The notes under the pieces are model-generated. The model saw only the letters and a list, made by a program, of their open reading frames with translations. It had not been told where the DNA came from and made no database searches. The position numbers were made by a program, and so were the translations under genes. This document shows, one piece after another, positions 28,564-45,743 of a DNA stretch of 64,000 nucleotides; position 1 is the stretch's first letter, and each line of letters opens with the position of its first letter. This DNA is from Clostridia bacterium (GTDB taxonomy: Bacteria; Bacillota; Clostridia; Oscillospirales; CAG-272), in assembly GCA_017453255.1 (NCBI GenBank), contig JAFTKN010000020.1, positions 12,399-76,398 of the forward strand, read 5' to 3'.

Positions 28564-28575
28564 TCAAGTATATAA

Positions 28576-28606
28576 AGCAGGGGCTTTTATGGCTCCTGTT
28601 TTTTCT
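28576..28606 (+). terminator. Terminator after the GH92 gene; insulates the downstream 8-gene operon
   Basis: CAGGGGC-TTTTATG-GCTCCTG followed by T8. Confidence 0.65.
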
Positions 28607-28723
28607 TTGTATATTTATGCACAAAAAACGAATATTTCAAGCAAAAATACAGAAAATACTTTTAGCAATTTGCACAAAATTGTTGAAAAAGGAAACAAAA
28701 TGTCAAAAAATGGCTTATTGCTA

Positions 28724-28752
28724 TTGAATATAAATATATTATATGATAAAAT
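28724..28752 (+). promoter_or_regulatory. Candidate promoter of the 8-gene operon
   Basis: TTGAAT (28724-28729), 17-nt spacer ending in TGA, TAAAAT (28747-28752). The region is AT-rich, so a chance match is possible. Confidence 0.3.
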
Positions 28753-28843
28753 AAATCTAACAATTTAAAAGGAGTTAAACGGTAAAGCTTTAATTAATTG
28801 TAATCTTATTCAAAGGCGAAATTTTTTATAAAAGGAGAGAAAA

Positions 28844-29545
28844 ATGAAAAAATTTAAAGAATCAAAGTTTATAATTGGCTTTAGTGCGATTTTAGCAATA
28901 ATTTTTGCAGTAATAAGCCTTGTTGTGTTCTTGGTATTGAAGGACCTTAATGCTACCTTCTGGCTTGGATATATTTTCTTAGCCCTTGCCTTCGTGCTTG
29001 CTGAGTGCGTTGTAATCTTCTTATTTAAGAACAAAAAGAAGGATGCTATTTTTCTTGGTATTCCACTTGTAACCTATACGCTTATTTATTTAGGCGTGGC
29101 GTTGGCTTGCTCACTATTATTCATGGTGCTCAAGGACTTTGTTCCATGGCAAGTTTCATTAATAGTTAATATTTTACCGTTTGCTATATTTATAGTTGTT
29201 GCTATATTTGCAATCCTTGCTCGTTCAGTAGTTGAGGAAATCAATGAGAATGTAGCTAAGAAGGTTAGAAATCTTAAGTCACTCGTTGTTGACGTTGACC
29301 TTATGGTTGAAACCTGTCAGGATGACGAGCTTAAGAATAAGCTTAAAAAGCTTTCTGAAACAATTAAATATTCTGACCCTATGTCAAACGATGCAGTAGC
29401 AGACGTTGAGGACAGAATTATAGCTAAGATGGCTGAGCTCCGTGTTTATAATGAAAACGGACAAATTGAGGATGCAACAAAGGCTGTTACAAGTCTTGAA
29501 ATCCTTTATGTAGAAAGAAACAGAAAATTAGCAATTTCAAAATAA
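28844..29545 (+). CDS. Operon gene A: 4-TM membrane protein with a cytoplasmic helical tail of about 95 aa (unknown family)
   Basis: 233 aa. Four hydrophobic helices lie in residues 9-135, then ..RNLKSLVVDVDLMVETCQDDELKNKLKKLSETIKYSDPMSND... RBS AAAGGAGAG. Confidence 0.75.
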   Translation: MKKFKESKFIIGFSAILAIIFAVISLVVFLVLKDLNATFWLGYIFLALAFVLAECVVIFLFKNKKKDAIFLGIPLVTYTLIYLGVALACSLLFMVLKDFVPWQVSLIVNILPFAIFIVVAIFAILARSVVEEINENVAKKVRNLKSLVVDVDLMVETCQDDELKNKLKKLSETIKYSDPMSNDAVADVEDRIIAKMAELRVYNENGQIEDATKAVTSLEILYVERNRKLAISK

Positions 29546-29565
29546 GCACAAAGAGGTAAATACAG

Positions 29566-31560
29566 ATGGCAGTTAATTATGTTGCAAGGCGCTGTTCACA
29601 ATGTGGCGGTGAATTGGAATACATAAAAGAGAGAAAGCTGTATGTATGTATGTACTGTGGTGCTGAATTTGAGCGTAAGGAAGAAAAGCGTGAGGGCATG
29701 TTTGCCCTCAAAAACGTGGTTAGACAGACTATTTTGGAAACCACCTATCGCCGTCTTGACAATGCTCAGAGAAACCTCGTTGAGTGCGAAAAGATTGATG
29801 CAAAATATGTTGGTACACAGATTGCAAAGATAGTTTATCAAATGATAAGGGTTACAACTCCTGGTGCGTGTCTTCCACATGAGGCAAGGGGACTCTTTGA
29901 GCAGATGAAGCGTAGCTATCTTCAATTAAAGGAGGACTATCCTGAAATTTCTGAGGATGAGGAGATTTTGTACGAGGATTTAGAGGAGAGCGATATTTAT
30001 GCTACACTCCTTCTCGTATTTGATTCCTTAGGGGACAAGTCAAGACGTGACTTTGTTCGTAGCCTCATTAATCCACGTGAGGTTTACTCACAGGATGCAA
30101 ATAGCAATCTTCTTACATATGCTCTGAAGAATAGCGACAACGATTTTGTAGATGCAATCATTTCAAACTATAATAATCTCAATGTTAAGCTTGCTATGAC
30201 AGAAATACTTAAAAAGCAGGCAGATGTGCCTACTAAGGCATCAAATGTAGCTAAATTGCTTTCTACAAAGCAGTTTGGAATTGATGACAAGAGATTAATT
30301 GAGGATTATATTGAAAGCTCACAGGACAGTGGAGAAACTAAGGCAGGAATTGCTGCAGCTTCAGTTACTAATGGAATTAACCTAAGCCTTGACATAGTTA
30401 CAAGGAATGTTCTTTCCAAGGTAAATAATGAGCAGGCAAGAGCCTTGATTTCTGCATATTGCACACATAAGCTAAATGATGCAGAGGTGCTTAAGATTTT
30501 AACCTTCACATTTGCTTCACAAAAGGCAGATGCTATGTTGGGTGCAATCGAGTGCCTTGAAAATGGTAATCAATATATTTTCATTCCATCAAAGGTAATT
30601 TCCTCCGTTTTAGACTCCAATCTTAGCGGAAGTGAAAAAAGAGAGGTTTTGGAGAAGGTATATAGCCATAATTTAGAGCAAAAGGCTCAGGAAAATGCCT
30701 TGACAAGCTATCTTTGCTTTAACACAGATAGCGCAGAGGAAAGATATGAGCTTATTCCATTTTTGCTTGAGCACGTGGCTAATATTCCTAACCAAACTGT
30801 TGAGAGCTATGTTTTAAAGTGTGCTCTTGACGTGGAAAGTAAGCCTGAAATCGTGGAAATGATGTTTAATAAGGGGCTTAACCTAAGCTTCTACAAGGAT
30901 TTAGTTACAAAGTATCTAAAGACTAATGTAGATACGCCAGACGTTAAGAGCGAGGTTTTAAGGGTTCTTATTGACGCAGGCTTGAAGCTTGATAGTGATA
31001 CACTTGAGAGCTTTATTTGTCAGCCAAGCGAAAATGATGCAATGAAAATCAGCTTTATTAATAAAATGGTTGAAAACGGCACAGCTATAAGAAACGACTG
31101 CGCAAGCAAGTATCTTGAAAGAATGCCGATTGACAAGTATAATACAGAGCTTTTAGGCTTGCTTTATAATCAAAGAAGCGTGTTTAGCGCTAAGGCTGTT
31201 GAAAATTATCTACTCTATTTTAGAGATGATGAGAAAACAAAGCTTACAAGAGCAAGACTATTTATCGAAAATTGTGTTGGGGATATTGGTGGCTATTATT
31301 GTAGCATTGCACATCTCCAAAACAGAGTGACCTGTAATATTGCTCAAGCCTATATGCTTTTAGCTCCAGATAATGTTGATTTAATTCGTAACGTAATTGA
31401 CTATATGCTCGCAGGTAAGCTTTTGAAGCTTAACGGTGAGGTTATGGTATCAAACGAGAGAATTAAGTTCAAGAAATATGTGGTTGCAAATAAAGGCTCT
31501 ATAGGTGGAAAAACAAATTCGCTTTGTGAGCATTATAAGGTATTTTCACTATTATTTTAA
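29566..31560 (+). CDS. Operon gene B: N-terminal zinc-ribbon protein with a long helical (ankyrin-like?) repeat region (unknown family)
   Basis: 664 aa. CSQCGG..(14)..CMYCG lies at 29593-29658. It is followed by repeated ..L(L/I)..G(L/A).(L/I).. helical modules (MFNKGLNLSF, LIDAGLKLDSD, MVENGTAIRND). No TM segment. Confidence 0.75.
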   Translation: MAVNYVARRCSQCGGELEYIKERKLYVCMYCGAEFERKEEKREGMFALKNVVRQTILETTYRRLDNAQRNLVECEKIDAKYVGTQIAKIVYQMIRVTTPGACLPHEARGLFEQMKRSYLQLKEDYPEISEDEEILYEDLEESDIYATLLLVFDSLGDKSRRDFVRSLINPREVYSQDANSNLLTYALKNSDNDFVDAIISNYNNLNVKLAMTEILKKQADVPTKASNVAKLLSTKQFGIDDKRLIEDYIESSQDSGETKAGIAAASVTNGINLSLDIVTRNVLSKVNNEQARALISAYCTHKLNDAEVLKILTFTFASQKADAMLGAIECLENGNQYIFIPSKVISSVLDSNLSGSEKREVLEKVYSHNLEQKAQENALTSYLCFNTDSAEERYELIPFLLEHVANIPNQTVESYVLKCALDVESKPEIVEMMFNKGLNLSFYKDLVTKYLKTNVDTPDVKSEVLRVLIDAGLKLDSDTLESFICQPSENDAMKISFINKMVENGTAIRNDCASKYLERMPIDKYNTELLGLLYNQRSVFSAKAVENYLLYFRDDEKTKLTRARLFIENCVGDIGGYYCSIAHLQNRVTCNIAQAYMLLAPDNVDLIRNVIDYMLAGKLLKLNGEVMVSNERIKFKKYVVANKGSIGGKTNSLCEHYKVFSLLF

Positions 31561-31578
31561 AACAAAGGAGAACGAGAG

Positions 31579-33339
31579 ATGACTCAGGAAGAGTATAATC
31601 AAGAGGTCAACCGATTACAATCTCTCATAAACGATCTGGAAAACAGGGCAAACAGGCTTATTGTTGAAAACCAACAGCTAACACAGGAGCTTGTTCAGTC
31701 CTTAGCAGACGTTGAGGTTTTGACATCGAAATGCAGACAGCTTGATGACGTAGTCTATGATGAGGTGGATTATTTGTCTGGCGTTGTTGGACAGGCTGAC
31801 CTCGAGGTAAAGCATATCTTTGATGCTTTAAACGAGCTTACAGCACAATTCTTCACCTTTAAGCGTCTTTCTACCGCTTCTAAAAACATCACTCAATATA
31901 CTGACGAGTATTACACAAAGTTCCATTATTATAATGAGCTTAGAAGAATTACTCTCGGCTATGTTATCGGTCTTGATGCTAATATTGTATCAAGCGATGT
32001 AATGAGGAAAAAGGTAGAAAAAGCTTATTTGCAAAACACTGAATACTGGTTAGCTTACTGTATTACTGCCGTTATGCTATGGGCAAGTAATGAAAAAACA
32101 GCTGCTAATCGTGCAATAAGCAAGGCATTATCAATTAATTATTTTAATTCCTGCTTATTCTTCCTTCTTATCAACCTAAGATTTAACAGAATGGACGCTG
32201 CTAAGAAGTGGTATGTAAACTACCTCGACCATGCAGACAGAGATGACTTGGGTGATGAGTGGCAATATCTACTTCAAGCATACTTGTTTGGAGTATTTGG
32301 AGCAGACGAAAAGTTCCAGACTCTTGTAATGAATTGCTTTAAGGATATGGTTAGTCAGCTTGAAATGACAACCGTTGACTTTGCAAAGAAGTTTACAAAG
32401 AGAGCGCTTGAATTTGCTCAGCTTTACCTACATAAAACAAGGAAAGAATATGTTACTATCCGTCGTAACAGCCCAGATTACGAGGATATTATGGACTTGC
32501 TTTCTACTGCTGAGAAAAACGCAGAAATAGCAAAATATTATGACGATTTGACACAGGTTGAGGCTAACGAGGGCGAAAACCTTGCTCAAAGAATCGAAAA
32601 TGTTCTTTATTCCTTGATTAACGACTATGATGATGAGGAATACAAGGTTGTTAAGAACATTAAGCTCAATGAGGCAATAGTTGCTGCAAAGGGCGATATG
32701 GCAGAGGCACAGGCTAAGACTGAAAAGCTATTTGCCGAGAGAGAGGAAAAGAAGAACTTCGGCGACCTTCTAAGAACATGGGCATTCTGTGAGGATGGTC
32801 AAACTGACGTAACAGTAAAAAGATTTTCAATATCCTTCATGAAGGATGCTATCTCAAAGGGATATGAGGAATTTGCTGAGGATTACAGAAAGAACGAGCC
32901 AGATGAGATTAATTTTGAAATCGACGGCTGTCATATGAAATGTAATGAAAATCAGCTTGACAAGGCAGAGAGTGCAATTAATAAGCACTACGATAAAAAC
33001 AAGCTTGCTAATACAATTAAGGACAAGCTTGTGCTTATATTCCTATGTATTACCTTGGGTGGAGCTTTACTCTGCGGTATCGGAGCAATAGTAATTGCTT
33101 GCGCAGGTAACCCAATAGCCATTAGTATTCTATTTGCACTTGGCGCAATCGTGCTTGGTGTAGGTATCTTCTTGATTTGCAGGCGAGTTATTGAGCTGAA
33201 GCAAATGCGTGAGGAAAAGAAGAAAAAGGCGATAGCTATTATGAAGCAGGCACTTGGTGAGCTTGCAGAGTGGCGTCAAGCTTACAAGGAAGCTGACAGC
33301 GAAAATGCAAATCTTATCAAGGTCTTTGAAAAATATTGA
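31579..33339 (+). CDS. Operon gene C: coiled-coil protein with a C-terminal TM hairpin, paralog 1 of 3 (unknown family)
   Basis: 586 aa. N-terminal heptad region (..NRLQSLINDLENRANRLIVENQQLTQELVQ..). Conserved core YWLAYCITAVMLWASNEKTAANRAISKALSINYFNSCLFFLLINLRFNRMDAAKKWY. Two TM helices at about 33030-33185, then the tail ..ALGELAEWRQAYKEA... Confidence 0.8.
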   Translation: MTQEEYNQEVNRLQSLINDLENRANRLIVENQQLTQELVQSLADVEVLTSKCRQLDDVVYDEVDYLSGVVGQADLEVKHIFDALNELTAQFFTFKRLSTASKNITQYTDEYYTKFHYYNELRRITLGYVIGLDANIVSSDVMRKKVEKAYLQNTEYWLAYCITAVMLWASNEKTAANRAISKALSINYFNSCLFFLLINLRFNRMDAAKKWYVNYLDHADRDDLGDEWQYLLQAYLFGVFGADEKFQTLVMNCFKDMVSQLEMTTVDFAKKFTKRALEFAQLYLHKTRKEYVTIRRNSPDYEDIMDLLSTAEKNAEIAKYYDDLTQVEANEGENLAQRIENVLYSLINDYDDEEYKVVKNIKLNEAIVAAKGDMAEAQAKTEKLFAEREEKKNFGDLLRTWAFCEDGQTDVTVKRFSISFMKDAISKGYEEFAEDYRKNEPDEINFEIDGCHMKCNENQLDKAESAINKHYDKNKLANTIKDKLVLIFLCITLGGALLCGIGAIVIACAGNPIAISILFALGAIVLGVGIFLICRRVIELKQMREEKKKKAIAIMKQALGELAEWRQAYKEADSENANLIKVFEKY

Positions 33340-33353
33340 TTGGAGGGTAAAAT

Positions 33354-34973
33354 ATGGCAAACGCATTATATGCCATTAACAGGCTTGACGAAACCATTAA
33401 TTCGTTCAAGTCAAGAGTTGATGTCAAGGTAACAGACGTTGATAACTCCACAGCGAGTATCCGTTCAACCGCTGACAGAATATATGAAAATATTGAGCGC
33501 TTCAAGGTTGATATGCTTCACGGCGAGGAAACACAGATAGCGCACGAGAATATTTTAAGAATTGACCAGATTATCAAGGAGCAGTTTGGTAATCACGAGG
33601 CAATCAGACGTACAGTTTTAGGTATCGTTAAGGACTTCGATATTAACCTCGTACGTAATAGCACAATTCAAGAGCTTTCTGAGGAATTATGGATTACAAG
33701 CTCAAGATATTGGCTATCCTATGCACTTTTAGCAATTACAGCTTGGGTAAACAACTACCCAGAGGTTGCAAAGAACGCCCTTTCCGAATGTGGAAGAAAG
33801 GACGCTATTAAAACAACATTATTCTTCTGCCTTACAAATCTTCGTTTTGGAAGAATGGAGGCAGCAAAGAAATGGTTCTACGAGTATTTCAATACTCTTG
33901 ACCCAACAATGCTTCAGCAGGAAACAGCAATTCTATTGCAATCCTTCTTAAACGGCATTTTCGGTAAGGATAAGGAGCTTGAGGGCGAAATCACAAAGCT
34001 TATTGATAGCTGGATTACAATTATCGAGGAGCAGGACGAGATTTCAGCGCAGCTTGTTGAATCCTATTATACCTATATTCAGAATTTACACCCAGAGTGT
34101 GAATTTAACTATCCAAAGCTACTTAAGCATTGTGCTGGTACAGGCACACTTAAGCAGACTATTACAGACGCATCAAAGTATGAGCTTCTTATAGACTTTG
34201 TAAAGGAGCTTGACGTTGAGGCTGTCGAGCAAACTGATGAAAACTATAAAAACAGAGTTGATGCTATCTTGGCTAAGCTTATCACTAACTATGATGCTGA
34301 CGAGCTTGAGCTTAGAAGACAACAGGCATACTACCGTTGCATAGCTGATAATAAGGGTGACGTTGAGGCTGCTGAGGCTCAGTTCACAGCTATGATGGAG
34401 CTTGAAAACGAGCATTTCAATATCGGTAAGCAAATGGTAAGATGGGCTATTTATGATGATAGCGAAAAGACAGACGTTCAGGTAAGAAAGTTCGGCTTCC
34501 AAAAGACAAAGGGCTGGTTTACCAAGGCTGTTGAAAGCTTCGATTCTGAGCTTGGCGCAAGCGTTCCAACACATTTCGATTTGTCAATCGACACATGGAA
34601 GGGTACAACAGACGGAAACGACGAGGCTGATCAGCACGATAGCATTGAGGCACACTTTAAAAACAACAAGCTACAAAATACAGTAGTTAATAAGTTTAAC
34701 GCAGTTGTTCTTGCAATTTTGGTTATCTCTGCAATAGTTGGAGTAATTATGATTGCAGCAGGTGCTGGCGCATGGGCATTAATCGTAACTGGTGTATGTG
34801 CAATTATTTTAGTAATTAGAGTAATTATTGCATTCAATAAATATCCAAATAGAATTAATGCAGCTAAGAAGGTGCTTAGTGAATGTATAGCAGAAATCGC
34901 AGAATATAGACGTAGCTATGAGGAAAAGCACGCTATGAAGGACGAGCTTTTCTCAATGGTAGAATTTCTTTAA
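33354..34973 (+). CDS. Operon gene D: coiled-coil protein with a C-terminal TM hairpin, paralog 2 of 3
   Basis: 539 aa. Core YWLSYALLAITAWVNNYPEVAKNALSECGRKDAIKTTLFFCLTNLRFGRMEAAKKWF. Two TM helices at about 34700-34850. Tail ..CIAEIAEYRRSYEEK... Confidence 0.8.
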   Translation: MANALYAINRLDETINSFKSRVDVKVTDVDNSTASIRSTADRIYENIERFKVDMLHGEETQIAHENILRIDQIIKEQFGNHEAIRRTVLGIVKDFDINLVRNSTIQELSEELWITSSRYWLSYALLAITAWVNNYPEVAKNALSECGRKDAIKTTLFFCLTNLRFGRMEAAKKWFYEYFNTLDPTMLQQETAILLQSFLNGIFGKDKELEGEITKLIDSWITIIEEQDEISAQLVESYYTYIQNLHPECEFNYPKLLKHCAGTGTLKQTITDASKYELLIDFVKELDVEAVEQTDENYKNRVDAILAKLITNYDADELELRRQQAYYRCIADNKGDVEAAEAQFTAMMELENEHFNIGKQMVRWAIYDDSEKTDVQVRKFGFQKTKGWFTKAVESFDSELGASVPTHFDLSIDTWKGTTDGNDEADQHDSIEAHFKNNKLQNTVVNKFNAVVLAILVISAIVGVIMIAAGAGAWALIVTGVCAIILVIRVIIAFNKYPNRINAAKKVLSECIAEIAEYRRSYEEKHAMKDELFSMVEFL

Positions 34974-34992
34974 TTAGAAAAGGAGAGTTAAT

Positions 34993-35163
34993 ATGAGTAA
35001 CGAAGTAAAGGACCAAGAATTAGACCTTAGCTTTGAGGAAATGATGCAAAACTTTACCTCACCAGCAGCAGAGGGAATGGAAATATCCGACGAGAGATTA
35101 CAGGAAATGAATAAAAAGCTTCCTGAGTGGAGCTTAGAGCCTCCATACAGCTTCCTTAAATGA
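34993..35163 (+). CDS. Operon gene E: 56-aa acidic peptide (absent from the ORF track, which lists nothing shorter than 60 aa)
   Basis: ATG at 34993 lies 7 nt after AAAGGAGAG. Product: MSNEVKDQELDLSFEEMMQNFTSPAAEGMEISDERLQEMNKKLPEWSLEPPYSFLK. Its stop overlaps the start of gene F (AAATGA at 35158-35163). Confidence 0.55.
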   Translation: MSNEVKDQELDLSFEEMMQNFTSPAAEGMEISDERLQEMNKKLPEWSLEPPYSFLK

Positions 35164-35636
35164 TTGCTGTATCTAAGCCAAGTAGCTATAGCGACTGGAT
35201 TCGGGCATTTGAAAATATTAAAAGCTATCCACTAAGTCAAGACTCCTATTATGAGCTTGAGCTGGGAAGGCTTGATACATATTCGTCAATGAGTCACCCC
35301 TTTAATTCTATGCTGACCGATACCATAAACGTGGTTTTGAATAGATGTATAGATAGCTTTTCAAGGGAGCTTGATATGTGCTTAAGCTTTAACGAGATAG
35401 ATAATATTGAGCTTGTCTTTAGTCATTTGAAAACAAACGTGAGAAGAGTATTCTTCTTTGAGCGTCTTGGCTTCCTACCCGATAGCGTAAAAAACGAGCT
35501 TTCGGAAAAAATCAAGGAGCAAATGTCTGCGTTTTGGAATACGGTTGTTAATCATCTTACAAAAGAGGCTATGAACAACCAAATCGGAGCGTTAGAGGAC
35601 ACGTTGTTCCTTATCAAAAGAATTAAATTGTTTTAA
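35160..35636 (+). CDS. Operon gene F: 158-aa soluble protein (unknown family)
   Basis: ATGA overlap with gene E. No TM segment and no motif I recognise. Confidence 0.65.
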   Translation: MIAVSKPSSYSDWIRAFENIKSYPLSQDSYYELELGRLDTYSSMSHPFNSMLTDTINVVLNRCIDSFSRELDMCLSFNEIDNIELVFSHLKTNVRRVFFFERLGFLPDSVKNELSEKIKEQMSAFWNTVVNHLTKEAMNNQIGALEDTLFLIKRIKLF

Positions 35637-35651
35637 GCATAGGTGTATAAA

Positions 35652-37151
35652 ATGGGGAATTATAATTCTACTAAAAAAGAGATAAAAAATTACATATGCG
35701 CAAGAACTCCGCTAATCGTAATTGATTCAAGCGAGAGGGAGAGAGTAGAAAGAATGCTCAAGGAGATATCAAGTGAGCTTAATATCGAGCTTCTTTACTA
35801 CACCGACGAAAAAAAGGCTTGTCACCTAAATGGTGGCTCGTCAAGGGATGTTGACGACCCTTTAGCATTTATATCCCAAACCTTTAGGAAAAATAGAAAT
35901 TCCACCTTTGCCTTCGGAGATATTAAAAGAATAAGCGAGGATAATATTTATAGCCGTGAGGTTCTTAATATTCTCTATTTAGCAAAGGAAACAAATTCCA
36001 CTTTGATTTTAATCACAGCTGATAATGTGTGGTCAAGGCTTGCCTCCTTTGGTATGCTTACTACCCTTGATTATCCTGACGTGGACGAAAGAATACACCA
36101 AATTAATCAATTTGTATCACGCTATCGCTCCAGATTTAAAATAAGCTGGGACGAAACAGATATTCGTATGGCTGCAACTCTTATGAGAGGCTTTACAGAG
36201 ATACAAACAGAAAATATTTTATCAACAACTCTTATTACCAATAACGGCTTAGGTAAGGAAAATTTAGCAGAGCTAACAGCTCAAAAGAGCAAGCTTTATG
36301 GTGCAGTTTCCTGTATCCAAGCAGTAAATGTTCCAAAGGGACTTTGTGCATCAGGACTTGAAAATCTCAAAGGCTGGCTACTCGATAAAAGAAGAATATT
36401 CTTCGCATCTGATAGTGAGCTTGAAAGCAGAGATTTAACCACTCCTAAGGGTATTTTGCTTGCGGGCATACCTGGCTGTGGAAAATCCTTATCTGCAAAA
36501 ATGGTCGCTAAGGAATGGAATTTACCATTGTTTAGATTTGATATCGGCTCAGTTTATGACAAGTGGGTTGGTGAGAGTGAAAAGAAAATGAAGGAAGCGC
36601 TTCAATTTATTGATAATGTTGCGCCCTGCGTTTTATGGGTTGATGAAATAGAGAAGGCGCTTTCCACCTCCGATTCAGGAAATGATACAGGAAAGAGAGT
36701 TTTAGGACAATTTCTGTTCTGGCTTCAGGAGTCTAAGAGTAGAGTATTTTTAGTTGCAACAGCCAACGATATATCCAAGCTCCCCTTTGAGCTATTTAGA
36801 AAGGGACGTTTTTCTGAAATGTTCTTCATAGATTTGCCTAACAAGAGGGAGAGAGAGGACACTATCAAGTATTACGTGAACAAATCGCTTCATAAAACCT
36901 TACCAGACGAGGTAATAAACAGCCTTGTTGAAATATCTGAGGGCTATTCCTATTCAGATATTGAATATAGCGTTAAGGAGTGCGCACAGCACGCTTTAAC
37001 CGAGGGTGATGAGGCTATAAATTCACAGCTTATATTAGAAAAATTCAAGAGAATTGTACCTATTGCAAAGGCTAATCCTGAAATGGTAGATAGGATTAGG
37101 GCTTGGGGAACCGAGCATGCAGTAGCAGCATCAAAACAGGAGGAAAAATGA
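35652..37151 (+). CDS. Operon gene G: AAA+ ATPase (classic AAA clade) with an N-terminal domain of about 250 aa lacking Walker motifs
   Basis: Walker A GIPGCGKS (36465-36488). Walker B VLWVDEIE (36630-36653). ..VFLVATANDISKLPFELFRKGRFSEMFFIDLP.. covers sensor-1 and the SRH/arginine-finger region. I prefer the ATG at 35652 behind AGGTG over the GTG at 35643. Confidence 0.85.
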   Translation: MGNYNSTKKEIKNYICARTPLIVIDSSERERVERMLKEISSELNIELLYYTDEKKACHLNGGSSRDVDDPLAFISQTFRKNRNSTFAFGDIKRISEDNIYSREVLNILYLAKETNSTLILITADNVWSRLASFGMLTTLDYPDVDERIHQINQFVSRYRSRFKISWDETDIRMAATLMRGFTEIQTENILSTTLITNNGLGKENLAELTAQKSKLYGAVSCIQAVNVPKGLCASGLENLKGWLLDKRRIFFASDSELESRDLTTPKGILLAGIPGCGKSLSAKMVAKEWNLPLFRFDIGSVYDKWVGESEKKMKEALQFIDNVAPCVLWVDEIEKALSTSDSGNDTGKRVLGQFLFWLQESKSRVFLVATANDISKLPFELFRKGRFSEMFFIDLPNKREREDTIKYYVNKSLHKTLPDEVINSLVEISEGYSYSDIEYSVKECAQHALTEGDEAINSQLILEKFKRIVPIAKANPEMVDRIRAWGTEHAVAASKQEEK

Positions 37152-38884
37152 GTCTTGCAGAATTACAAAATTATGCAAATGCGCTACAAAATCAGGTAAG
37201 ACAGCTCGAAAATGAAAACAGAGAGCTTTTACAAGAGCTTTCCGTTGTTGAGCGTGGAGTTTTAGGCGCTATGAACGAGCTTGAGGCGTTTAACTCCAAA
37301 ATTAGAAATACCTTTGACTATTGCGCAAACTCCATGGCATATTCTCACGACAAGGCAGTACAGTCAATAGTTGTGCAGGGCGAGATAGAGGAGCTTTATA
37401 AGAGATTTAAGCATATAGAGCTTGCTAACAAGAAGATTCGTGCCTGCAACAATAAAAAATATTACGATTTTGCAAACTATAGAGCTGTAAGAAAGATTGT
37501 TCAAGGTATAATGGATAACTTAGACCTTAACATGATAAGCAACCGTACAATTATGAAGGCGGTTGAGGTACAGCATTTGCAAACACCTGATTATTGGCTA
37601 ACCTGTGCATTAATTGCCGTAATGGCATGGAAAAGCGATGATAAAAGACTTGCTGATAGAGCCTTAGCAGAGGCTATCAAGCTTGATAAGAAGAATACAT
37701 CACTATTCTTTATGCTCTTTAATCTTCGTGTAGATAGGGAGGATGCGGCTCTAAAATGGTTTGAGTCCTTCCAGGAATGTGAAATGAAGGGTAGCGACGA
37801 GGATACATTCCTTATGCTCTTTACCCTTATTACAAAAACAATAGCAGATAGAGTTGATGACGGAGCGCAGAATGCTGCTCTTAAGTTCATTAAGAGAATT
37901 TACGATGAGTGTGTAGGCTCTGAGAGCTATGACGAAGGTGCACTCGTTGATAAAATTGAGAGCTTCTATGCTCAAATGATGCCTCATGACGCACTCGAAT
38001 ATCCACTACTTCAAAAGCACCTAACTGACTACAGTCAGCTAACATATCAAATGATGCTTGCTAAGAATAATATTTCTATTCTTGAGTATCTTTTGAAGCT
38101 TGAGGACGTTAAGGATAAGAGAAATAGCTATATTAAGCAATATATCGACCAGCTTGTATTAAGACCTAACGCAACTGAAAAGAGCGTTTATGATGAGATT
38201 GAGTATAACGAATACATAATCAAATATCAGGGCTATGTTGATCAAGCGAAGGAAGCTTATGACGAAATGTGCGCAAAGCGTGAAAGCGAGATTAAGCTTG
38301 TTGATAGCATGGTTGATTGGATTCAAGACGGCGAAAACTCTGAAAAGGTAAACGATTTAGTTAAATTAAATATGTTTACTATGGTTAAGCCACTTGAGGA
38401 AAAGGCTATTGAGAATTATACTGAGGCTTATAGAGCAAGAGTTAATCATAAGCATGGCGTAAAAATCAACGACTATAAAACAACAGTTGATTTCAAGAAT
38501 CAGACAAGCGAAACTCAAAAGGTAAAGGACTTCTATGAGGCTAAAAAGCAGGCAGAATTAAAGACAGTAAAGAATACACCAATTATTCTTTCCTTTATAA
38601 TCGCTGTTTTAACCTGTGCAGGAGCAATCGCTCTACAAATTGCAGTAGGGGGTATGTGGCTCTGGATCTTAGGCTTTACTGGCGTAAGTGCATTAGTAGG
38701 AGTAATTTATATCTTTAAAAACAAGAACAGACGTGGAACTATTATACTAAATTGCGAAAAGGACGCAAACGTAACGGGCGCAATTTTAGAAAAGCTATTT
38801 GTTCAGTATGCTGAATACGAAAAGGAGTATGAGGAATACGACGGATACGCTGAAAGAATAGTAAACGAGCTTGCAAAGATTTAA
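37148..38884 (+). CDS. Operon gene H: coiled-coil protein with a C-terminal TM hairpin, paralog 3 of 3
   Basis: 578 aa from the ATG at 37148, which overlaps the AAA+ stop (ATGA) behind AGGAGG. N-terminus ..LQNQVRQLENENRELLQELS... Core YWLTCALIAVMAWKSDDKRLADRALAEAIKLDKKNTSLFFMLFNLRVDREDAALKWF. TM hairpin at about 38578-38715. Tail ..FVQYAEYEKEYEEY... Confidence 0.8.
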   Translation: MSLAELQNYANALQNQVRQLENENRELLQELSVVERGVLGAMNELEAFNSKIRNTFDYCANSMAYSHDKAVQSIVVQGEIEELYKRFKHIELANKKIRACNNKKYYDFANYRAVRKIVQGIMDNLDLNMISNRTIMKAVEVQHLQTPDYWLTCALIAVMAWKSDDKRLADRALAEAIKLDKKNTSLFFMLFNLRVDREDAALKWFESFQECEMKGSDEDTFLMLFTLITKTIADRVDDGAQNAALKFIKRIYDECVGSESYDEGALVDKIESFYAQMMPHDALEYPLLQKHLTDYSQLTYQMMLAKNNISILEYLLKLEDVKDKRNSYIKQYIDQLVLRPNATEKSVYDEIEYNEYIIKYQGYVDQAKEAYDEMCAKRESEIKLVDSMVDWIQDGENSEKVNDLVKLNMFTMVKPLEEKAIENYTEAYRARVNHKHGVKINDYKTTVDFKNQTSETQKVKDFYEAKKQAELKTVKNTPIILSFIIAVLTCAGAIALQIAVGGMWLWILGFTGVSALVGVIYIFKNKNRRGTIILNCEKDANVTGAILEKLFVQYAEYEKEYEEYDGYAERIVNELAKI

Positions 38885-38885
38885 T

Positions 38886-38926
38886 AAAAAAGAGTGAGAA
38901 CGCATTACCGCGTGCTCACTCTTTTT
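38886..38926 (+). terminator. Strong terminator of the 8-gene operon; left copy of a duplicated sequence (see 45652-45697)
   Basis: AAAAAAGAGTGAGAACGC-ATTACC-GCGTGCTCACTCTTTTT: a 13-bp stem with 1 mismatch, followed by T5. Confidence 0.85.
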
Positions 38927-38934
38927 ATTTAATT

Positions 38935-39468
38935 TTATTTTTTGCAATAAAAATCATTCATCATTTGCTCTGCGTCGATATCATTTAATGAATCATTATA
39001 CTGACTTACTCTTAGCTTAATCTCGTTAATTATTTTTATTCTTTGTTTTCTTGAAAATCCAGCAATCAAAATTTTCTTTCTTTCCCTGCTTTTTAGTAAC
39101 AGTTCAATGTTTGTTCTTAACAGCTTTGTAAGTTTGATTTCTCCTTTTTCGAGAATATTATATTTTTGAATTGGGAAATCATCAGTTTTTCCTGACACAA
39201 TTCTTATGTCGATTATATCTTCGTATTTAACATTAATACAATGTTGAATAGCATTAATCCCATTAAGCTTTCTTTTTTTCTTTAGACCAGGAACAAATAC
39301 GCTATCTTTAGTAAAAGTTATTCGTCCATAATAAATAAAAATAATAATAATCGCAACAAAGAATGCAACACCTATCATCGTTATAGCCATTTCAAAATAC
39401 AGTTCTTTTACCAATCCGATTGTAGCCATTACAATCAAAAAAGCGAGCATGCTGTAAATAAAAAGCAT
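38935..39468 (-). CDS. 2-TM immunity-like protein, paralog 3 (orphan); possibly 5'-truncated by a homopolymer frameshift
   Basis: 177 aa. N-terminal TM pair plus a C-terminal domain ..FSRKQRIKIINEIKLRVSQYNDSLNDID.., homologous to the 39770 and 40396 products. An upstream ATG at 39512-39514 is followed by an A8 tract and is out of frame by one base. Confidence 0.65.
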   Translation of the reverse strand: MLFIYSMLAFLIVMATIGLVKELYFEMAITMIGVAFFVAIIIIFIYYGRITFTKDSVFVPGLKKKRKLNGINAIQHCINVKYEDIIDIRIVSGKTDDFPIQKYNILEKGEIKLTKLLRTNIELLLKSRERKKILIAGFSRKQRIKIINEIKLRVSQYNDSLNDIDAEQMMNDFYCKK

Positions 39469-39534
39469 TCCACAAACATACCATTTATTAAAGTAAAAAA
39501 TAGTTTTTTTTCATTACAAACAACCTTCAAAATT

Positions 39535-39703
39535 TAATTACCATACGCATCAGAAAAACCACTTTGCAGAGTTTCAAATAAGCCATCAAAAAACGTCTTT
39601 TATATATTGTTGAATTACCCAAAAGCTACTAAAGAGCACTTTGGAAAACCCCTACCCACGCATCATATACATATTTTACCATAGTGGTTCCTTTTGTGTC
39701 AAG
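39535..39703 (-). pseudogene. Vestigial Rhs core / toxin-tip fragment upstream of the orphan immunity gene
   Basis: 39655-39703 aligns with 41750-41798 inside the Rhs gene: 27 nt are identical, then about two-thirds match. It encodes ..LDTKGTTMVKYVYDAW.., versus ..LDSEGNTVVKYVYDAWGNH.. in the intact gene. The frame then hits a stop after 8 codons. Confidence 0.6.
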
Positions 39704-39769
39704 TTTGCTATTGAATTTTAAAAAGCGTTGTGATAAACTAAACATATAATTATACAAGGGGGATAACAA

Positions 39770-40366
39770 ATGGAGAAAAGGGTTTTTCGCGCTTGGGAAG
39801 ATACAAGGGTTAAAATTTTTCTGATAGTTACAATTTTTTTAATTCCATTTTTACTTGTATCAAACGCAATGCTTTTTAAAAGTGAATATCAATATCCTGC
39901 TTGGAAAGTAATATATGGAATATGTTCCATTTTTATTTATATAGTTTTTTTAAGCTACTGGGCATGTTGCTTGATATATAAAGTAACGCTCTTACCAGAA
40001 GGAGTTTTATACAAACAAAATACCTTGCAAATTATACCATATAGCCAAATAAGCAAAATCAGATTTATTTATAGCAAAAGAGATGAAAATGGTAATTTTA
40101 TTAAGCCTACCCACATACGCGATAGTAATTATTTAACACCAAAAGCATATACAGAATTTACATTAAATGACGGCAAAATATATAGAATAAGAATTGAAGG
40201 AATGACCAAAAAGCTTACAATTAAAATACTTGAAGAAATAAAGGCTCGCTCCATTGCTTATAACGATGCCCTAAAGGATTTTGATCCAATTAAAACTGTC
40301 AAAAAATCAAAGTTTACCTTTAAAGAACCTAAAGAAAGCTTTATAATTCCAAAAAATTTGCATTAA
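39770..40366 (+). CDS. 2-TM immunity-like protein, paralog 2 (opposite strand)
   Basis: 198 aa. TM pair plus ..GMTKKLTIKILEEIKARSIAYNDALKDFD... It is convergent with paralog 1. Confidence 0.65.
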   Translation: MEKRVFRAWEDTRVKIFLIVTIFLIPFLLVSNAMLFKSEYQYPAWKVIYGICSIFIYIVFLSYWACCLIYKVTLLPEGVLYKQNTLQIIPYSQISKIRFIYSKRDENGNFIKPTHIRDSNYLTPKAYTEFTLNDGKIYRIRIEGMTKKLTIKILEEIKARSIAYNDALKDFDPIKTVKKSKFTFKEPKESFIIPKNLH

Positions 40367-40397
40367 GAAAAGACCTCTTTTAGAGGTCTTTCTTTTT
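40367..40397. terminator. Bidirectional terminator between the convergent immunity paralogs
   Basis: AAGACCTCT-TTT-AGAGGTCTT: a 9-bp stem flanked by an A-run and a T-run. Confidence 0.75.
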
Positions 40398-40965
40398 ATT
40401 TCAATATAACTTTACCATCAATTTGAGGCATTAAAAGCTCTCTAACTAATTGGTTATAGCTTTTTGTTAAATCTGTCCTTCTGTTTATTTGGCTTATTAT
40501 TTTTTCTCTTTGCTTGTCAGAGTAGGGAGAAATATCAAACCACATTGAATCTTCATTCTTTAGAATAAATTCTAAATAAAGATTTATATTTTTAACTTCC
40601 TTATCATTTTCGTCCAAAATGACTTTTTTGTCAGCGTCTTTGTACGAAAAAACTAACTTAACATATTCAATATTAAAATAGAGAATTTTGCATTTATTAA
40701 ACCGATTTTTGGAATTTCCATTATTCACTTTTTGAAGAAATTCTATTTGCTCCTTATTAAATGTTATTTTGATTGCTTTTAAGTAAGTACGTATTGTTGG
40801 AACAATCGGCACAATGAAAAACATAATAGAAAAAATTAAAGCAAATAAGTAAAATTCTTTTTCAATTAAAAAAAGGATAAACGGAAAAAACATAAAGAAT
40901 AAATACGAACAAGCAATAAACATTTTTGATGTTGACATATCTATAGGTCTAAACTTTTTCCCCAT
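40396..40965 (-). CDS. 2-TM immunity-like protein, paralog 1 (cognate position, directly downstream of the Rhs toxin)
   Basis: 189 aa. It starts 11 nt after the Rhs stop. TM pair plus ..YSDKQREKIISQINRRTDLTKSYNQLV... Confidence 0.7.
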   Translation of the reverse strand: MGKKFRPIDMSTSKMFIACSYLFFMFFPFILFLIEKEFYLFALIFSIMFFIVPIVPTIRTYLKAIKITFNKEQIEFLQKVNNGNSKNRFNKCKILYFNIEYVKLVFSYKDADKKVILDENDKEVKNINLYLEFILKNEDSMWFDISPYSDKQREKIISQINRRTDLTKSYNQLVRELLMPQIDGKVILK

Positions 40966-40976
40966 ATAACCACTCC

Positions 40977-43900
40977 TTAATCAACTAATTGTTGCGTAAG
41001 CTTTTCAAAGCCAAATAAAGAATAATAAAATTCTGCAAGACTTGCACCTGCACCATCTTCCAAGCTATCCATTAAGTTTTTACCGAATTGTTTTAGATTT
41101 TTGTTAAACAAAATGGTGTCCAAATCCGAAGAACTACCATCACTGAAGGCAAAGGAAAAGATTCCTGCAAATCCAGATATAATCAATATTTCTTTTGCTG
41201 TGTGATTTTTACCATCAATCCAATTTTCAAATTGCATACTGCCAGCCTTGGTTAAAAAGCCTGATACAAACGCACCCGTTTTATTTAAAAACGAGTTTCC
41301 TAAAAAGCCTAAACCTGCACTGAAAGCTCCACCAAGAGCTCCGCCAACAATACTACCTAAAAATCCACTCCAAGACCAATTCCACTCTCCTGTTATCACA
41401 AAAGAAATAACAGTGCTAGCAGTGTACGAAATTGCACTAGAAATCGCTCCAATGACAGCTCCAACAAGAATTGAAATCAAAAAATTTCCACTTGGATCTA
41501 CATACATAACAGGGTTATTGTTACAGTACGCGTATAGGTTAGTACCACCGATAGTTTCTGGGTCAAGATAGCTAATATCATCAGGTGAGATGAATCTGCA
41601 AATTGTTGGGTCGTAATATCTTGCGTTCAAGTAATATAGCTTTGTTTCAGTATCGTAGTAGTATGAACGATATCTGATTGGGTTAATGCGACCAATATGT
41701 GCTTCATCGGTTATTGCAGCACCATTTGCGTCAAGCACACTATGATTTCCCCACGCATCATATACATATTTTACCACAGTATTACCCTCGGAGTCAAGAA
41801 TTTCGATTACATTACCGAAAATATCCTTGCGATAGAAATATTTTTCTCCCAGATATTCAAAGGCATAAACAGAGGAGTTATTATCGTAGAAAAATTTAAT
41901 TCCGTTTGATTGTCTGAATATCTGATTTTGCATATTGTATTCGTAAGTAATTTCAGAATCTCCTGTCTTTGAAATTCGTCTTCCAAAAGCGTCGTATTCA
42001 AAGGTTATATCACCATAAGATGTAAGCTTTCTTCCTGAGCCCCATTCAAGTGTCTTTCCCTTGTATGCCGTTGGATTGCCTAAGAGGTCATATGTAATTT
42101 CATTTCCGTCAAAAGAAATCAGATTTCCAACCATATCATAACTATAGTTGAATATTTTTCGATATGCGTTACTTTCGTTTAACTCTCGCTCTGATTCAAA
42201 TGAAAAACCATATAATTTTTTTGAAGCAATATTACCCTTGTTATCATAAGAATAGAAAGCTGTAGCATTTAGCCCCCTATTATTTTCTCTAACAAGTCTA
42301 CCGAGTGTATCATATTTATGCTCAACTGTAAGTACACCATTTTCATATATTTTTGTGATATTACCCATTTTATCATATTTATATCTGATGTTGTCACCTA
42401 AAATTAAAGCTTCGCCATTCTTTTTGCTATATTGAATCGCTACAGGTAATTTAGTAGCATGGTCGCCATTTTTAAGATATGTAATATCCTCTGAGTATAT
42501 ATCTTCAACATAATTAGAAATAGTCTTTCCTCTATTTCTTCCTAAGCAGTCAGTTTTTAGCTTATGTGTTGTACCATCGTTTACATAAGTATATTCCTTT
42601 AGATTGCCTAATATATCGTAGGTATATTGATTATACATAGCTCTTGGATTTGTTGTACTGTTAATTGTTTCACAGGAAATTTTTCCGTTAGCAGTATAGG
42701 TATATGTCTGGCTATATATTTCGTTTAACTCACCATCTTCTAAATACTCGTATAATCTTTCAGTTGAAAGCTTTCCACAACTATCATATGTGTACTTAAT
42801 GATATTAACATTTACACCATTTTCTTGTTGAATAATAGAGGTTACTTTACCATTTGAAATGACTTTGATTAACTTTTTAGAGCTTTCACCCTTTATGATT
42901 TCTTTTGTTTCTGTTGTTGGTGAAACCTCATGCTTTTCGATACTGCCGTCTGCATAGGTTACAGTTGTCTTTTCGGTATTTGTTGTATTGTCCTTTTCGT
43001 ATAGGTATTGTGCATATTCATTACCATTTATTGTAACAGAGGTGACTCTATCCTTGTAATCATATGTGTACTCGTATGTATTGCTATCACTAATAACCTT
43101 AGTTAAAAGACCATTTGTATATATTTTTTGAATACTGTTTTCCTCTCCGTCTGCTGTGCTTTGAGTAATTGCAGAGTTGCCATTCATATTGTCAAAGCCA
43201 AAGGAATATCTGCTTCCGTTAGGGTATTTTGTGCTACAAACTGTATTTGTTCCATCAAAATATTCATACATTGTACGATTTTTTCCTAAGAGGTCAAATT
43301 CAGCAATTTTTTGTCCCTTTTCGTTTACCTCAATTTCCTCATAATACTTTGATGATGGATCAAGGGAATTATATGTAATCTTTTTTATCTCGAAGCCGTT
43401 TTTATCGTAAACATGCTCCTCAATATTAATTCCGTTTGCTTTTTCCTCACCCTCTGTATAGCTTTGCTTCTTTAATAGCTGTCCTCTGTCGTTATATTCG
43501 AGCAATACAATATGATTAAGTTCCTTTATTGGACTTGATATATCAGTATATATCTTTTCGTTTGTTACTACTTTTGATACTTGTCCCTTTTCGTTATATG
43601 TGTAGGTTTTGACTATATCCTGCTTATAACCATTGTCAGTATCACTAATTTTCTTATTTGTAACAGCTTCGCTTTTTACTCTGTTAAAGGCATCGAGGGT
43701 TACGGTGCTTTGACACATATTCTCAAACGTCACCGTTTCTCCGTACAAGCCATTTTCCTGAACAGAGGAAACGTTATATTTTCCCATTCCTACATGTTCA
43801 TATTTTTCTGCCTTTGTGTACTTTCCGTTTTCTAACACGCAATGCTCGGTTATTCTTCCGTCTGCATCAAAGGTGTAAGCTTCGACAATTTGTTGCTCTT

Positions 43901-45497: not shown

Positions 45498-45572
45498 TAA
45501 TTTCTCCTTTTAATTATAGGTCTTTTTTGGTAGATTTTTTCGTAGGGTTTTTCCGCACTGCTTGTTCCTTGT

Positions 45573-45630
45573 ATCTCTATTATCGCATAAAAAAACCGTA
45601 CCTAAACGGTACAGTTTTGCTAAAATCGAA
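45573..45630 (-). repeat. Second copy of the 58-bp terminator/extended -10 cassette (partner 3418-3475), upstream of the Rhs gene
   Basis: 55 of 58 nt are identical. Weaker similarity continues for about 15 nt toward the gene (GAGATACAAGGAACAAG versus GAGATGTAAGGCAGAAAG). Confidence 0.8.
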
Positions 45631-45651
45631 TTTTTTCTAAGACTATGGCAG

Positions 45652-45697
45652 AAAAAAGAGTGAGAACGCATTAAACTGCGCTTTCACTCTTTTTTTA
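45652..45697 (+). repeat. Right copy of the duplicated operon terminator (degenerate hairpin)
   Basis: AAAAAAGAGTGAGAACGCATTA-AACT-GCGCTTTCACTCTTTTTTT. The first 22 nt are identical to 38886-38907. The stem is weaker than in the left copy. Confidence 0.8.
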
Positions 45698-45743
45698 TTG
45701 AAAAAAATGTGCTATAATTAAGAAAAATGCTACGGAGAAGTAT

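Follow-up and report, generated by a model that had tools for sequence, protein, structure and literature searches.

A conserved eight-gene AAA+ membrane operon of a Clostridia bacterium and its possible link to polymorphic toxin export

We analysed 64,000 nucleotides (nt) of DNA from a Clostridia bacterium (contig JAFTKN010000020.1 of assembly GCA_017453255.1, positions 12,399 to 76,398 of the forward strand), hereafter the window, and concentrated on an operon of eight genes, A to H, at 28844-38884, which encodes an AAA+ ATPase together with several predicted membrane proteins. A sequence-only reading had put the operon forward as a candidate novel system and had offered three hypotheses for it: membrane-acting defence, membrane remodelling, and export or release of a neighbouring Rhs toxin. 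Comparative sequence analysis indicates that the operon is a real, widely conserved unit matching no described system; everything said below about its function comes from comparative genomics and structure prediction only. The operon and its boundaries comprise the following features, with protein lengths in amino acids (aa).

28574-28602, + strand: intrinsic terminator of the upstream GH92 gene (terminator scan; RNAfold -16.7 kcal/mol), left operon boundary
28718-28752, + strand: candidate sigma-70-type promoter, TTGCTA-18-TATGAT overlapping TTGAAT-17-TAAAAT with an extended TG (consensus scan only)
28844-29545, + strand: gene A, 233 aa
29566-31560, + strand: gene B, 664 aa
31579-33339, + strand: gene C, 586 aa, paralog 1 of the C/D/H family
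33354-34973, + strand: gene D, 539 aa, paralog 2 of the C/D/H family
34993-35163, + strand: gene E, 56-aa acidic peptide
35160-35636, + strand: gene F, 158 aa, start overlapping the E stop (ATGA)
35643 (GTG) or 35652 (ATG) to 37151, + strand: gene G, 499-502 aa, tandem AAA+
37148-38884, + strand: gene H, 578 aa, paralog 3 of the C/D/H family, start overlapping the G stop (ATGA)
~38890-38924, no strand assigned: strong hairpin between A-runs and T-runs (RNAfold -23.0 kcal/mol), right operon boundary

The eight open reading frames (ORFs) are co-directional and tightly spaced, as had been described, with gaps of 20 nt (A-B), 18 nt (B-C), 14 nt (C-D), 19 nt (D-E) and 6 or 15 nt (F-G), and with ATGA overlaps at 35160 (E/F) and 37148 (G/H). 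The sequence-only reading had placed every gene behind a GGAG-type ribosome-binding site. Such sites are clear upstream of A, C, D, E and H, but B has AGAGG, G only a weak AGGTG, and F none, so translational coupling of F is probable. Its call of a terminator on each side of the operon holds. The downstream hairpin, which is directly followed by a T-run and was missed by a simple terminator scan, is likely a bidirectional terminator. Between the GH92 terminator and the start of A lie 240 nt (28603-28843) that contain the promoter-like sites for A.

A scan of one genome per species returned 273 relatives in 185,579 species genomes, and 79 of the 80 loci that were fetched are of the multi-gene type (a nine-sequence alignment from the first genome scan had held no usable conserved stretch). 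In 52 of the 79, none of A, B, C, D, E, G and H is missing, and every one of these loci (52/52) has the order A-B-C-D-E-(F)-G-H, which disposes of the concern that the genes were a chance juxtaposition. Complete loci were found in Clostridia, Bacilli and Anaerolineae. Among the hosts are Oscillospiraceae, Lachnospiraceae, Ruminococcus, Christensenellaceae, metagenome-assembled genomes (MAGs) of Bacilli, and Anaerolinea, as well as the cultured Hungatella hathewayi WAL-18680 and Pseudoflavonifractor phocaeensis An569. A sister genome (locus L087, C copy 87% identical) has the same eight genes at the same GH92...GH43 locus. Directly upstream of A, all 40 informative relatives, meaning loci with enough upstream sequence for this check, carry a gene for an SPFH (Band_7_1) protein with a double zinc ribbon; it is absent from the window operon and from the sister genome. 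The description of an eight-gene operon does not extend to most relatives, which have nine to twelve genes.

From the sequence alone, only the AAA+ module and a zinc ribbon had been nameable, and our searches of Pfam, NCBIfam, PADLOC, PHROGs, PDB sequences and PDB and BFVD folds lead to the same result. Genes A, C, D, E, F and H gave nothing above threshold in the first four collections, and neither the profile searches nor the fold searches, the latter made with models of C and F, placed the operon in a characterised system. The two findings that the sequence-only reading had named as refuting it, membership of a known system and lack of conservation as a unit, were thus both looked for, and neither was obtained. 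Literature searches did not turn up a description of this gene set. The nearest accounts are of tandem inactive/active AAA+ proteins beside PspA or Snf7 and of proteins combining Band-7 with a zinc ribbon (PMC11237479).

The proteins encoded by C, D and H are mutually paralogous (about 25% identity; E-values 5e-51, 1e-35 and 5e-33), and hydropathy places a single hydrophobic hairpin near the C-terminus of each, at residues ~480-541 of C (nt 33016-33201), ~443-498 of D (nt 34680-34847) and ~473-524 of H (nt 38564-38719). Both the paralogy and the hairpins had been recognised before; B, E, F and G have no such segment. An AlphaFold2 model of C (mean predicted local distance difference test score, pLDDT, 84.2) predicts a long N-terminal helix (residues 3-114), a tetratricopeptide repeat (TPR)-like helical solenoid (118-437), a small β-hairpin, a transmembrane helical hairpin and a long C-terminal cytoplasmic helix. 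Signal peptides are absent from all three proteins and their soluble parts are predicted to be cytoplasmic, unlike those of the secreted Hbl, Nhe, Ahl and Smh proteins. Foldseek comparison of the C model with the PDB gave nothing significant (best E 0.05, template-modelling scores below 0.2, generic TPR/HAT repeats); BFVD held no significant fold match, and sequence profiles of the family found nothing in the PDB. Membership of the TPR family was accordingly rejected (nothing at E <0.05, template-modelling scores <0.2), as was an identity as tripartite α-pore-forming toxins, whose ClyA-like fold has a hydrophobic head (AhlB/SmhB, Foldseek E 0.19-0.45, template-modelling scores 0.10-0.15). In the NCBIfam/Pfam scan of the window's D, SLATT_1 was reached at E 0.032 only.

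The triplication is old, since each paralog has its own orthologs: identity among these is 54-58% for C, 60-67% for D and 48% for H, against 22-27% across paralogs, and H orthologs always come last in the operon. C has more than 600 homologs, all named ones being labelled hypothetical, and at 50% identity the family as a whole falls into about 780 clusters in a set of 1.84 billion representative proteins; almost every member is 540-600 aa long. D carries the conserved motif YWL..A..AW...A..A...KT.LFF.L..R..R....W and is the paralog nearest to the single-copy form found in the minimal D-E-F-G systems described below.

Hydropathy supports the earlier view of A as a protein with four transmembrane segments (residues ~5-134) followed by a cytoplasmic helical tail, which bears an invariant SDP motif. 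A is present in 56 of the 79 related loci at 31-45% identity and, in the four collections named above, was assigned to no family. Membership of the SLATT group was rejected: a match to SLATT_4 appeared in only 1 of 37 A orthologs (E 0.011; cutoff 55 bits) and is therefore taken as noise. Gene B always follows A in related loci, with orthologs 39-42% identical. Its N-terminal zinc ribbon (first 36 residues; A2L_zn_ribbon, E 2.4e-5) lies above the Pfam cutoff, as had been anticipated. The long soluble region that follows has no hydropathic transmembrane segment, gave nothing above threshold in Pfam, NCBIfam, PADLOC or PHROGs, and has no match among PDB sequences.

E is indeed a 56-aa acidic peptide (13 D/E against 5 K/R). 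Across about 80 aligned orthologs of the Clostridial type its C-terminus is near-invariant, KKLP-x-W-S/N-L-EPP-xx-FLK-COOH (nt 35113-35160), and the core LPxWxLxPP is retained in the Streptococcus, Fusobacterium, Comamonas and Paenibacillus versions. F is soluble and fast-evolving, and its slot is filled by an ORF of about 160 aa in every related locus. AlphaFold2 predicts a six-helix bundle (pLDDT 83.5, predicted template-modelling score 0.79) from a shallow alignment: a single-sequence search retrieved 2 hits and a 68-sequence profile 6, few because the word prefilter fails on so fast-evolving a family. The F model has no fold match (best E >1), the F profile has no match in the PDB, and F is not homologous to the protein labelled X3 of related loci.

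G belongs to the classic clade of AAA+ ATPases, as first proposed. It matches PF00004 in Pfam (E 1e-29), and its C-terminal half has the full set of motifs: Walker A GIPGCGKS (nt 36465), pore loop KWVGESE (nt 36561), which we take to be Vps4-like, Walker B DEIE (nt 36642), sensor 1 TAN and arginine fingers RKGRF. The nearest PDB sequences to this domain are VAT and the D2 domain of Cdc48/p97. The N-terminal half has no Walker A motif; residues 101-195 nonetheless align with the sensor-to-lid part of G's own AAA domain (hhalign E 6e-5, probability 65%), so that G is best described as two AAA domains in tandem, the first inactive and the second active. The sequence thus identifies G as a translocase-competent tandem AAA+ protein with a degenerate first and an active classic-clade second domain. 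Identity is 70% to orthologs and 37-41%, over the full length, to the versions of the minimal systems. Curated models of known families score far under their cutoffs: CdvC 91.9 against 650 bits, over the AAA domain only; CDC48 88.5 against 803; FtsH_fam 74.6 against 600, with no Peptidase_M41 and no transmembrane segment; and the NCBIfam model IteA 79.7 against 510. The PADLOC IetA models cover residues 256-471 only, and there is no protease partner. In the N-terminal half, which aligns to an AAA domain instead, neither a MIT domain nor a double-psi barrel was found.

The strongest indication of what the operon may do comes from its relatives. In 27 of the 79 related loci it is tied to a cassette, usually between B and C and, in two Bacilli MAGs, upstream of the SPFH gene. 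The cassette always starts with a protein of about 900 aa (labelled X1) with DUF87 and HerA_C domains above Pfam cutoffs. The nearest PDB match of this ATPase is HerA, its PADLOC matches are the generic HerA and mad8 models, and FtsK_SpoIIIE is reached at E 0.046, under cutoff. In 26 of the 27 loci it is followed by a variable pair of proteins, the large member measuring 215-1133 aa and the small member 73-388 aa. With few exceptions the N-terminal region of the large protein is very acidic, and the C-termini form three recurrent classes, one with an extra-domain sub-class, besides three singleton proteins. One class has a C39-like Cys-His-Asp peptidase domain, to which the sub-class adds further domains including Endonuclea_NS_2 (E 9e-25); the others have a HExxH metallopeptidase-like domain or an unrelated 140-aa domain. 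The family of the downstream gene matches the class of the large protein perfectly (10/10, 5/5, 7/7 and 2/2). The large proteins of two loci, L010 and L011, are 71% identical over 457 N-terminal residues, whereas their C-termini and downstream genes differ. The signature of polymorphic toxin-immunity pairs is a common N-terminus whose C-terminal domains are exchanged together with the immunity gene (PMC3482391). On sequence grounds the cassettes display both of its elements, recombination between N-terminus and C-terminal domain and co-variation of the immunity gene. Pfam scans found no LXG or WXG domain in these toxins, and they have no signal peptide. The sequence-only reading had set secretion systems aside for want of an FtsK-type ATPase, an exclusion undermined by the presence of an ATPase of the HerA/FtsK superfamily with a toxin and an immunity gene in these 27 relatives.

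Many of the relatives' toxins contain 1-6 copies of the repeat HNYG..DY..YSQDPEWQxLN, which is about 45 aa long (for example L003, 7312-9507, and L063, 4279-7680). Its core P-E-W-x-x-L resembles the motif LPEWSLEPP of E, and the same receptor might serve both.

The operon also exists in a minimal form. A D-E-F-G core occurs in the Streptococcus satellite phage Javan368 (recorded host Streptococcus oralis U-o2), on a Comamonas antarctica megaplasmid, in Fusobacterium vincentii (SB055, in a record listed as a 2.1-Mb plasmid) and in Paenibacillus. In Javan368 the core lies at the accessory end, and it is also found beside integrase remnants. By sequence comparison, the Clostridial type adds to this core the four-transmembrane A, the zinc-ribbon B and, usually, the YdjI-like SPFH protein. 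A metagenome scan yielded 399 relatives of the Streptococcus-type D. The minimal systems have a fifth gene, Y160, for a protein of about 160 aa that is 41-57% identical from Streptococcus to Comamonas, carries the motif KCYLGxPYEVHTL...IIEHYKxG...YxFIEVY, and is always beside D-E-F-G, where it precedes D or follows G. Neither Pfam nor a profile search of the PDB gave a match for it, and it shows no homology to any family of the long, Clostridial type. Instances of Y160 are:

L091, 14102-14584
L006, 15887-16381
L005, 11540-12025
L086, 9450-9926

An extended variant of the Streptococcus type (L154, 6375-20533; also L143, L147, L148, L131, L135 and L161) consists of a helix-turn-helix gene (in L147), a 306-aa zinc-ribbon/transmembrane protein, an 890-aa HerA-like ATPase, D-E-F-G, a very acidic 1406-aa HExxH protein, and proteins of 244, 262 (multiple transmembrane segments), 176 (zinc ribbon) and 160 aa. 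Its HerA-like ATPase is homologous to the ATPase of the Clostridial cassettes (hidden Markov model E 7e-73), and the C-terminal tail of the 244-aa protein after the toxin resembles, by eye and unscored, the immunity proteins of the HExxH class in those cassettes. The 176-aa protein, S176, matches the SPFH/zinc-ribbon profile (E 2.7e-9), which we take to reflect a common zinc ribbon. Beyond the ATPase and S176, no protein of the variant matched a long-type family. With an ATPase and an acidic HExxH protein beside the Streptococcus core, the association with a cassette recurs across classes.

Other genes stand directly downstream of H at individual loci. In L010 (15567-18865), and also in L009 and L011, these encode, on the same strand, a protein of about 930-1000 aa with Sel1 repeats (E 4e-113) and a second one of 160 aa, which may be a further accessory pair. 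In L029 (15683-21286; Lachnospiraceae) the gene encodes a protein of 1867 aa that combines TPR repeats with a STAND-like ATPase domain.

Given toxins, a HerA-type ATPase and an immunity protein inside the operon in one third of the relatives, export or membrane-coupled release of antibacterial toxins, for antagonism between bacteria, appears to be the likeliest role, and that the toxins carry no known export signal counts in the same direction. We tentatively read the window operon as one copy, lacking cargo, of a membrane-anchored AAA+ machine that has not been described and that would export or control polymorphic toxins, a reading that we find quite possible though short of probable, and one suggested by sequence comparison and structure models. 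The window copy, itself without cargo, has also lost the SPFH gene. Going one step further, the operon could encode the core machinery of a novel kind of secretion or protein-delivery system of monoderm bacteria, which would export polymorphic antibacterial toxins addressed through acidic, disordered N-terminal targeting regions; we put this forward with somewhat greater reserve. With the same reserve, we envisage for such a system a TPR/transmembrane-hairpin platform powered by a Cdc48-like tandem AAA+ protein, with the HerA-type ATPase contributing where cargo is encoded in cis.

As to mechanism, D-type proteins are by comparison membrane-anchored scaffolds, with a predicted cytoplasm-facing coiled coil, a TPR-like solenoid and a transmembrane hairpin, and the window operon has them in triplicate as C, D and H. 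C, D and H might assemble into a hetero-oligomeric membrane platform, possibly a channel, on which a hexamer of G would dock to thread disordered polypeptide through its KWVGESE pore loops. The TPR grooves of proteins typically bind peptide tails of the kind that E possesses, and E could act as an adaptor or co-substrate held by its C-terminal motif. The clients would be polymorphic toxins with long acidic, disordered N-terminal regions, presumably encoded elsewhere in the genome from which the window derives.

Several observations weigh against this picture. The window operon has no HerA gene, toxin or immunity gene, and about two thirds of the relatives likewise have no cassette, so that the base machine must work without an operon-encoded client. 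The minimal five-gene type has one membrane protein only, and neither Pfam and NCBIfam nor the fold search with the C model revealed a likeness of any component to known channels or secretion proteins. The accessory ATPase is closest to HerA, which also scaffolds intracellular defence effectors, and toxin-antidote pairs are found in abortive-infection systems too. Each mechanistic step, be it interaction, localisation or secretion, is one that we infer.

These last points bear on the hypothesis of anti-phage defence by abortive infection, in which the AAA+ protein, together with HerA where present, would sense infection or be triggered by it and then set free the membrane-acting transmembrane-hairpin proteins or the embedded toxins, so that the cell dies or is arrested; the small proteins encoded downstream would serve as antitoxins. 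Such a role would suit a core found on a Streptococcus satellite, beside integrase remnants and on a Comamonas megaplasmid, and the sporadic distribution of the 273 relatives. It is also in keeping with the resemblance of the accessory ATPase to HerA and mad8 models and of G to IetA over the AAA domain, and with the TPR-STAND ATPase downstream of one operon. We nevertheless consider it unlikely. PADLOC matched no component other than the ATPases, and these through generic AAA and HerA domains only, and G falls far below the IteA cutoff. At 65 loci the operon is flanked by a heterogeneous mix of housekeeping genes, and the 120 flanking proteins scanned downstream of H show no enrichment of defence or mobile-element functions. 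Two scans of 2.9 million viral contigs in IMG/VR found no relatives of the D family, and Javan368 was the sole match of the G N-domain among phage records. A conserved N-terminus with a swapped C-terminal toxin and cognate immunity is, moreover, a hallmark of exported polymorphic toxins and atypical of known defence effectors. The defence hypothesis is thus left without direct support.

The SPFH gene and the architecture of G bring in membrane maintenance or remodelling. On this account an SPFH scaffold and a Vps4/Cdc48-like AAA+ protein would assemble, disassemble or extract the coiled-coil transmembrane-hairpin proteins, by a logic analogous to that of Vps4/ESCRT-III, NSF/SNARE, HflKC-FtsH or YdjI-PspA, and the toxin cassettes would be hitch-hikers. 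The presumably Vps4-like pore loop of G and the housekeeping genes on the flanks agree with it, as does the SPFH/double-zinc-ribbon gene that heads the operon in all informative relatives. The same SPFH plus zinc-ribbon architecture is reported for the Band-7 protein of the Bacillus subtilis ydj (pspA) operon, written YdjL in PMC11237479. According to the supplementary table of PMC11237479, certain bacteria encode proteins of 'inactive classical AAA + classical AAA' architecture next to PspA or Snf7, and by architecture the tandem layout of G may be likened to these proteins. The sequence-only reading's analogy is to this extent in keeping with an SPFH partner and a tandem Cdc48/Vps4-like AAA+ protein, but it lacks its other half: Pfam and NCBIfam detect no PspA, Snf7 or ESCRT-III domain in any operon gene. 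The window lineage, moreover, has no SPFH gene and yet keeps the other eight genes intact, and the rare, patchy distribution is unlike that of a housekeeping function. Finally, a cassette that sits inside the operon and recurs with the core in a distant lineage argues for functional coupling, not hitch-hiking. We regard this account as distinctly improbable and retain toxin export or control as our working interpretation.

An Rhs gene (RHS_repeat E 1e-27) adjoins the operon in convergent orientation, and the last of the hypotheses cast the operon as a dedicated export or release device for this signal-less toxin. Three paralogous genes for proteins of about 180-200 aa lie between the two, each product with an N-terminal hydrophobic segment (BLASTP E 3e-9 and 5e-5; no Pfam family):

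38935-39468, - strand
39770-40366, + strand
40396-40965, - strand

By sequence these look like an immunity-type array, and such two-transmembrane, immunity-like genes next to the operon would fit a dedicated device, as would the presence of two RHS-repeat proteins within the 120 flanking proteins scanned at 65 loci, each encoded no further than two genes downstream of the operon. The sister genome, however, has an identical operon at the identical GH92...GH43 locus with an HTH_3 gene in place of the whole Rhs block. GC content is 0.32-0.33 across the block (window 38000-46000) against 0.37-0.40 in the operon and its flanks, the orientation is convergent, and no protein similar to this Rhs N-terminus or core was found at any related locus. 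The sister operon without Rhs, the lower GC and the lack of a similar Rhs at related loci indicate that the block is a later, separate insertion, and we hold a device dedicated to it to be very improbable. What survives of the hypothesis is its general form, in the cassette toxins of the relatives.

The wider surroundings are rich in glycosidase genes, as had been reported, with GH31, GH3 and GH92 genes upstream and, downstream, the adjoining Rhs gene followed by a GH43 gene. A phage module placed 25 kb away was not confirmed. One candidate gene there (12052-13446) codes for an altronate/galactarate dehydratase of the UxaA-like kind, with 51-54% identity to annotated homologs, and this part of the window belongs to sugar-acid metabolism and not to a phage.

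In Gram-positive bacteria of the gut and mouth, antibacterial toxins are known to be delivered mainly by T7SSb, Sec-dependent or phage-derived routes. If toxin export by the operon is borne out, it would represent an additional dedicated route, built from families without known homologs. It would also reveal a new toxin-targeting signal in the acidic N-terminal region, in some cases with HNYG/DPEWQ repeats, and assign a role to six or more orphan protein families, among them one with about 780 sequence clusters. Were the role instead one of defence or membrane repair, the operon would show a Cdc48/Vps4-like unfoldase coupled to membrane-anchored TPR scaffolds in bacteria. The system is testable in the cultured carriers Hungatella hathewayi WAL-18680, Pseudoflavonifractor phocaeensis An569, Fusobacterium vincentii SB055 and Comamonas antarctica; a further version lies on the satellite with the recorded host Streptococcus oralis U-o2, and oral streptococci of this group are naturally transformable.

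Set beside known systems, the operon shares parts with several. It recalls the classic-clade unfoldases (Cdc48/p97-VAT, PEX1/PEX6, Vps4/CdvC, NSF and Msp1) in the AAA domain of G, its tandem layout and its aromatic pore loop, and in the presumed pairing with membrane-anchored helical/TPR-like partners and a peptide with a conserved C-terminus. It differs in that the N-domain of G has no homologous adaptor-binding domain and that for none of the partners C, D, H, E and F is a homolog known. No fold of the ESCRT-III/PspA type (Snf7, PspA_IM30) was found in A-H by Pfam or NCBIfam or with the C and F models. SPFH-AAA+ and SPFH-PspA assemblies offer a second likeness, the relatives' Band_7_1 and zinc-ribbon protein being built as in the B. 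subtilis ydj operon and, as in HflK/C-FtsH, an SPFH scaffold being combined with a classic AAA+ protein. In contrast to these assemblies, the window has no SPFH gene, G has neither a protease domain nor a transmembrane segment, and PspA is absent.

The HerA-effector defence systems (Sir2-HerA, DUF4297-HerA and MADS mad8) are approached through the relatives' ATPase, which matches HerA and mad8 models and solved HerA structures, and IetAS through the match of G to IetA over its AAA domain. Unlike in these systems, there is no Sir2, DUF4297 or IetS protease, the relatives' effectors come with cognate immunity genes and a polymorphic-toxin architecture, and the window has no HerA gene. Extracellular contractile injection systems (eCIS/PVC) use a Pvc15-type ATPase, a Cdc48-related tandem AAA+ protein, for toxin payloads with disordered N-termini (PMC3482391). 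Pfam scans of the window and related loci, by contrast, found no sheath, tube or baseplate families.

The closest analogy in logic is type VII secretion (ESX/T7SSb), although every defining component tested is absent. The operon-linked ATPase is soluble, HerA-like and optional, in place of a multi-domain, membrane-anchored EssC/EccC, and no window gene matched FtsK_SpoIIIE in Pfam. EsaA, EssA, EssB, YukD, EccB, EccD, EccE and MycP were found in none of the Pfam/NCBIfam scans of window and relatives' proteins, and WXG100/LXG matched neither E, F and the other window products nor the relatives' toxins. The EccA model scores 14.8 against a cutoff of 467. EccA itself, a classic-clade AAA+ protein with TPR repeats, is a point of likeness to ESX (PMC3482391). 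Both are systems of Firmicutes or Actinobacteria, and what the operon and its relatives have in common with type VII secretion is a set of working parts: an ATPase of the FtsK/HerA superfamily paired with polymorphic toxins and adjacent immunity genes, several small accessory proteins of helical structure, and membrane components without a known channel architecture (PMC3482391).

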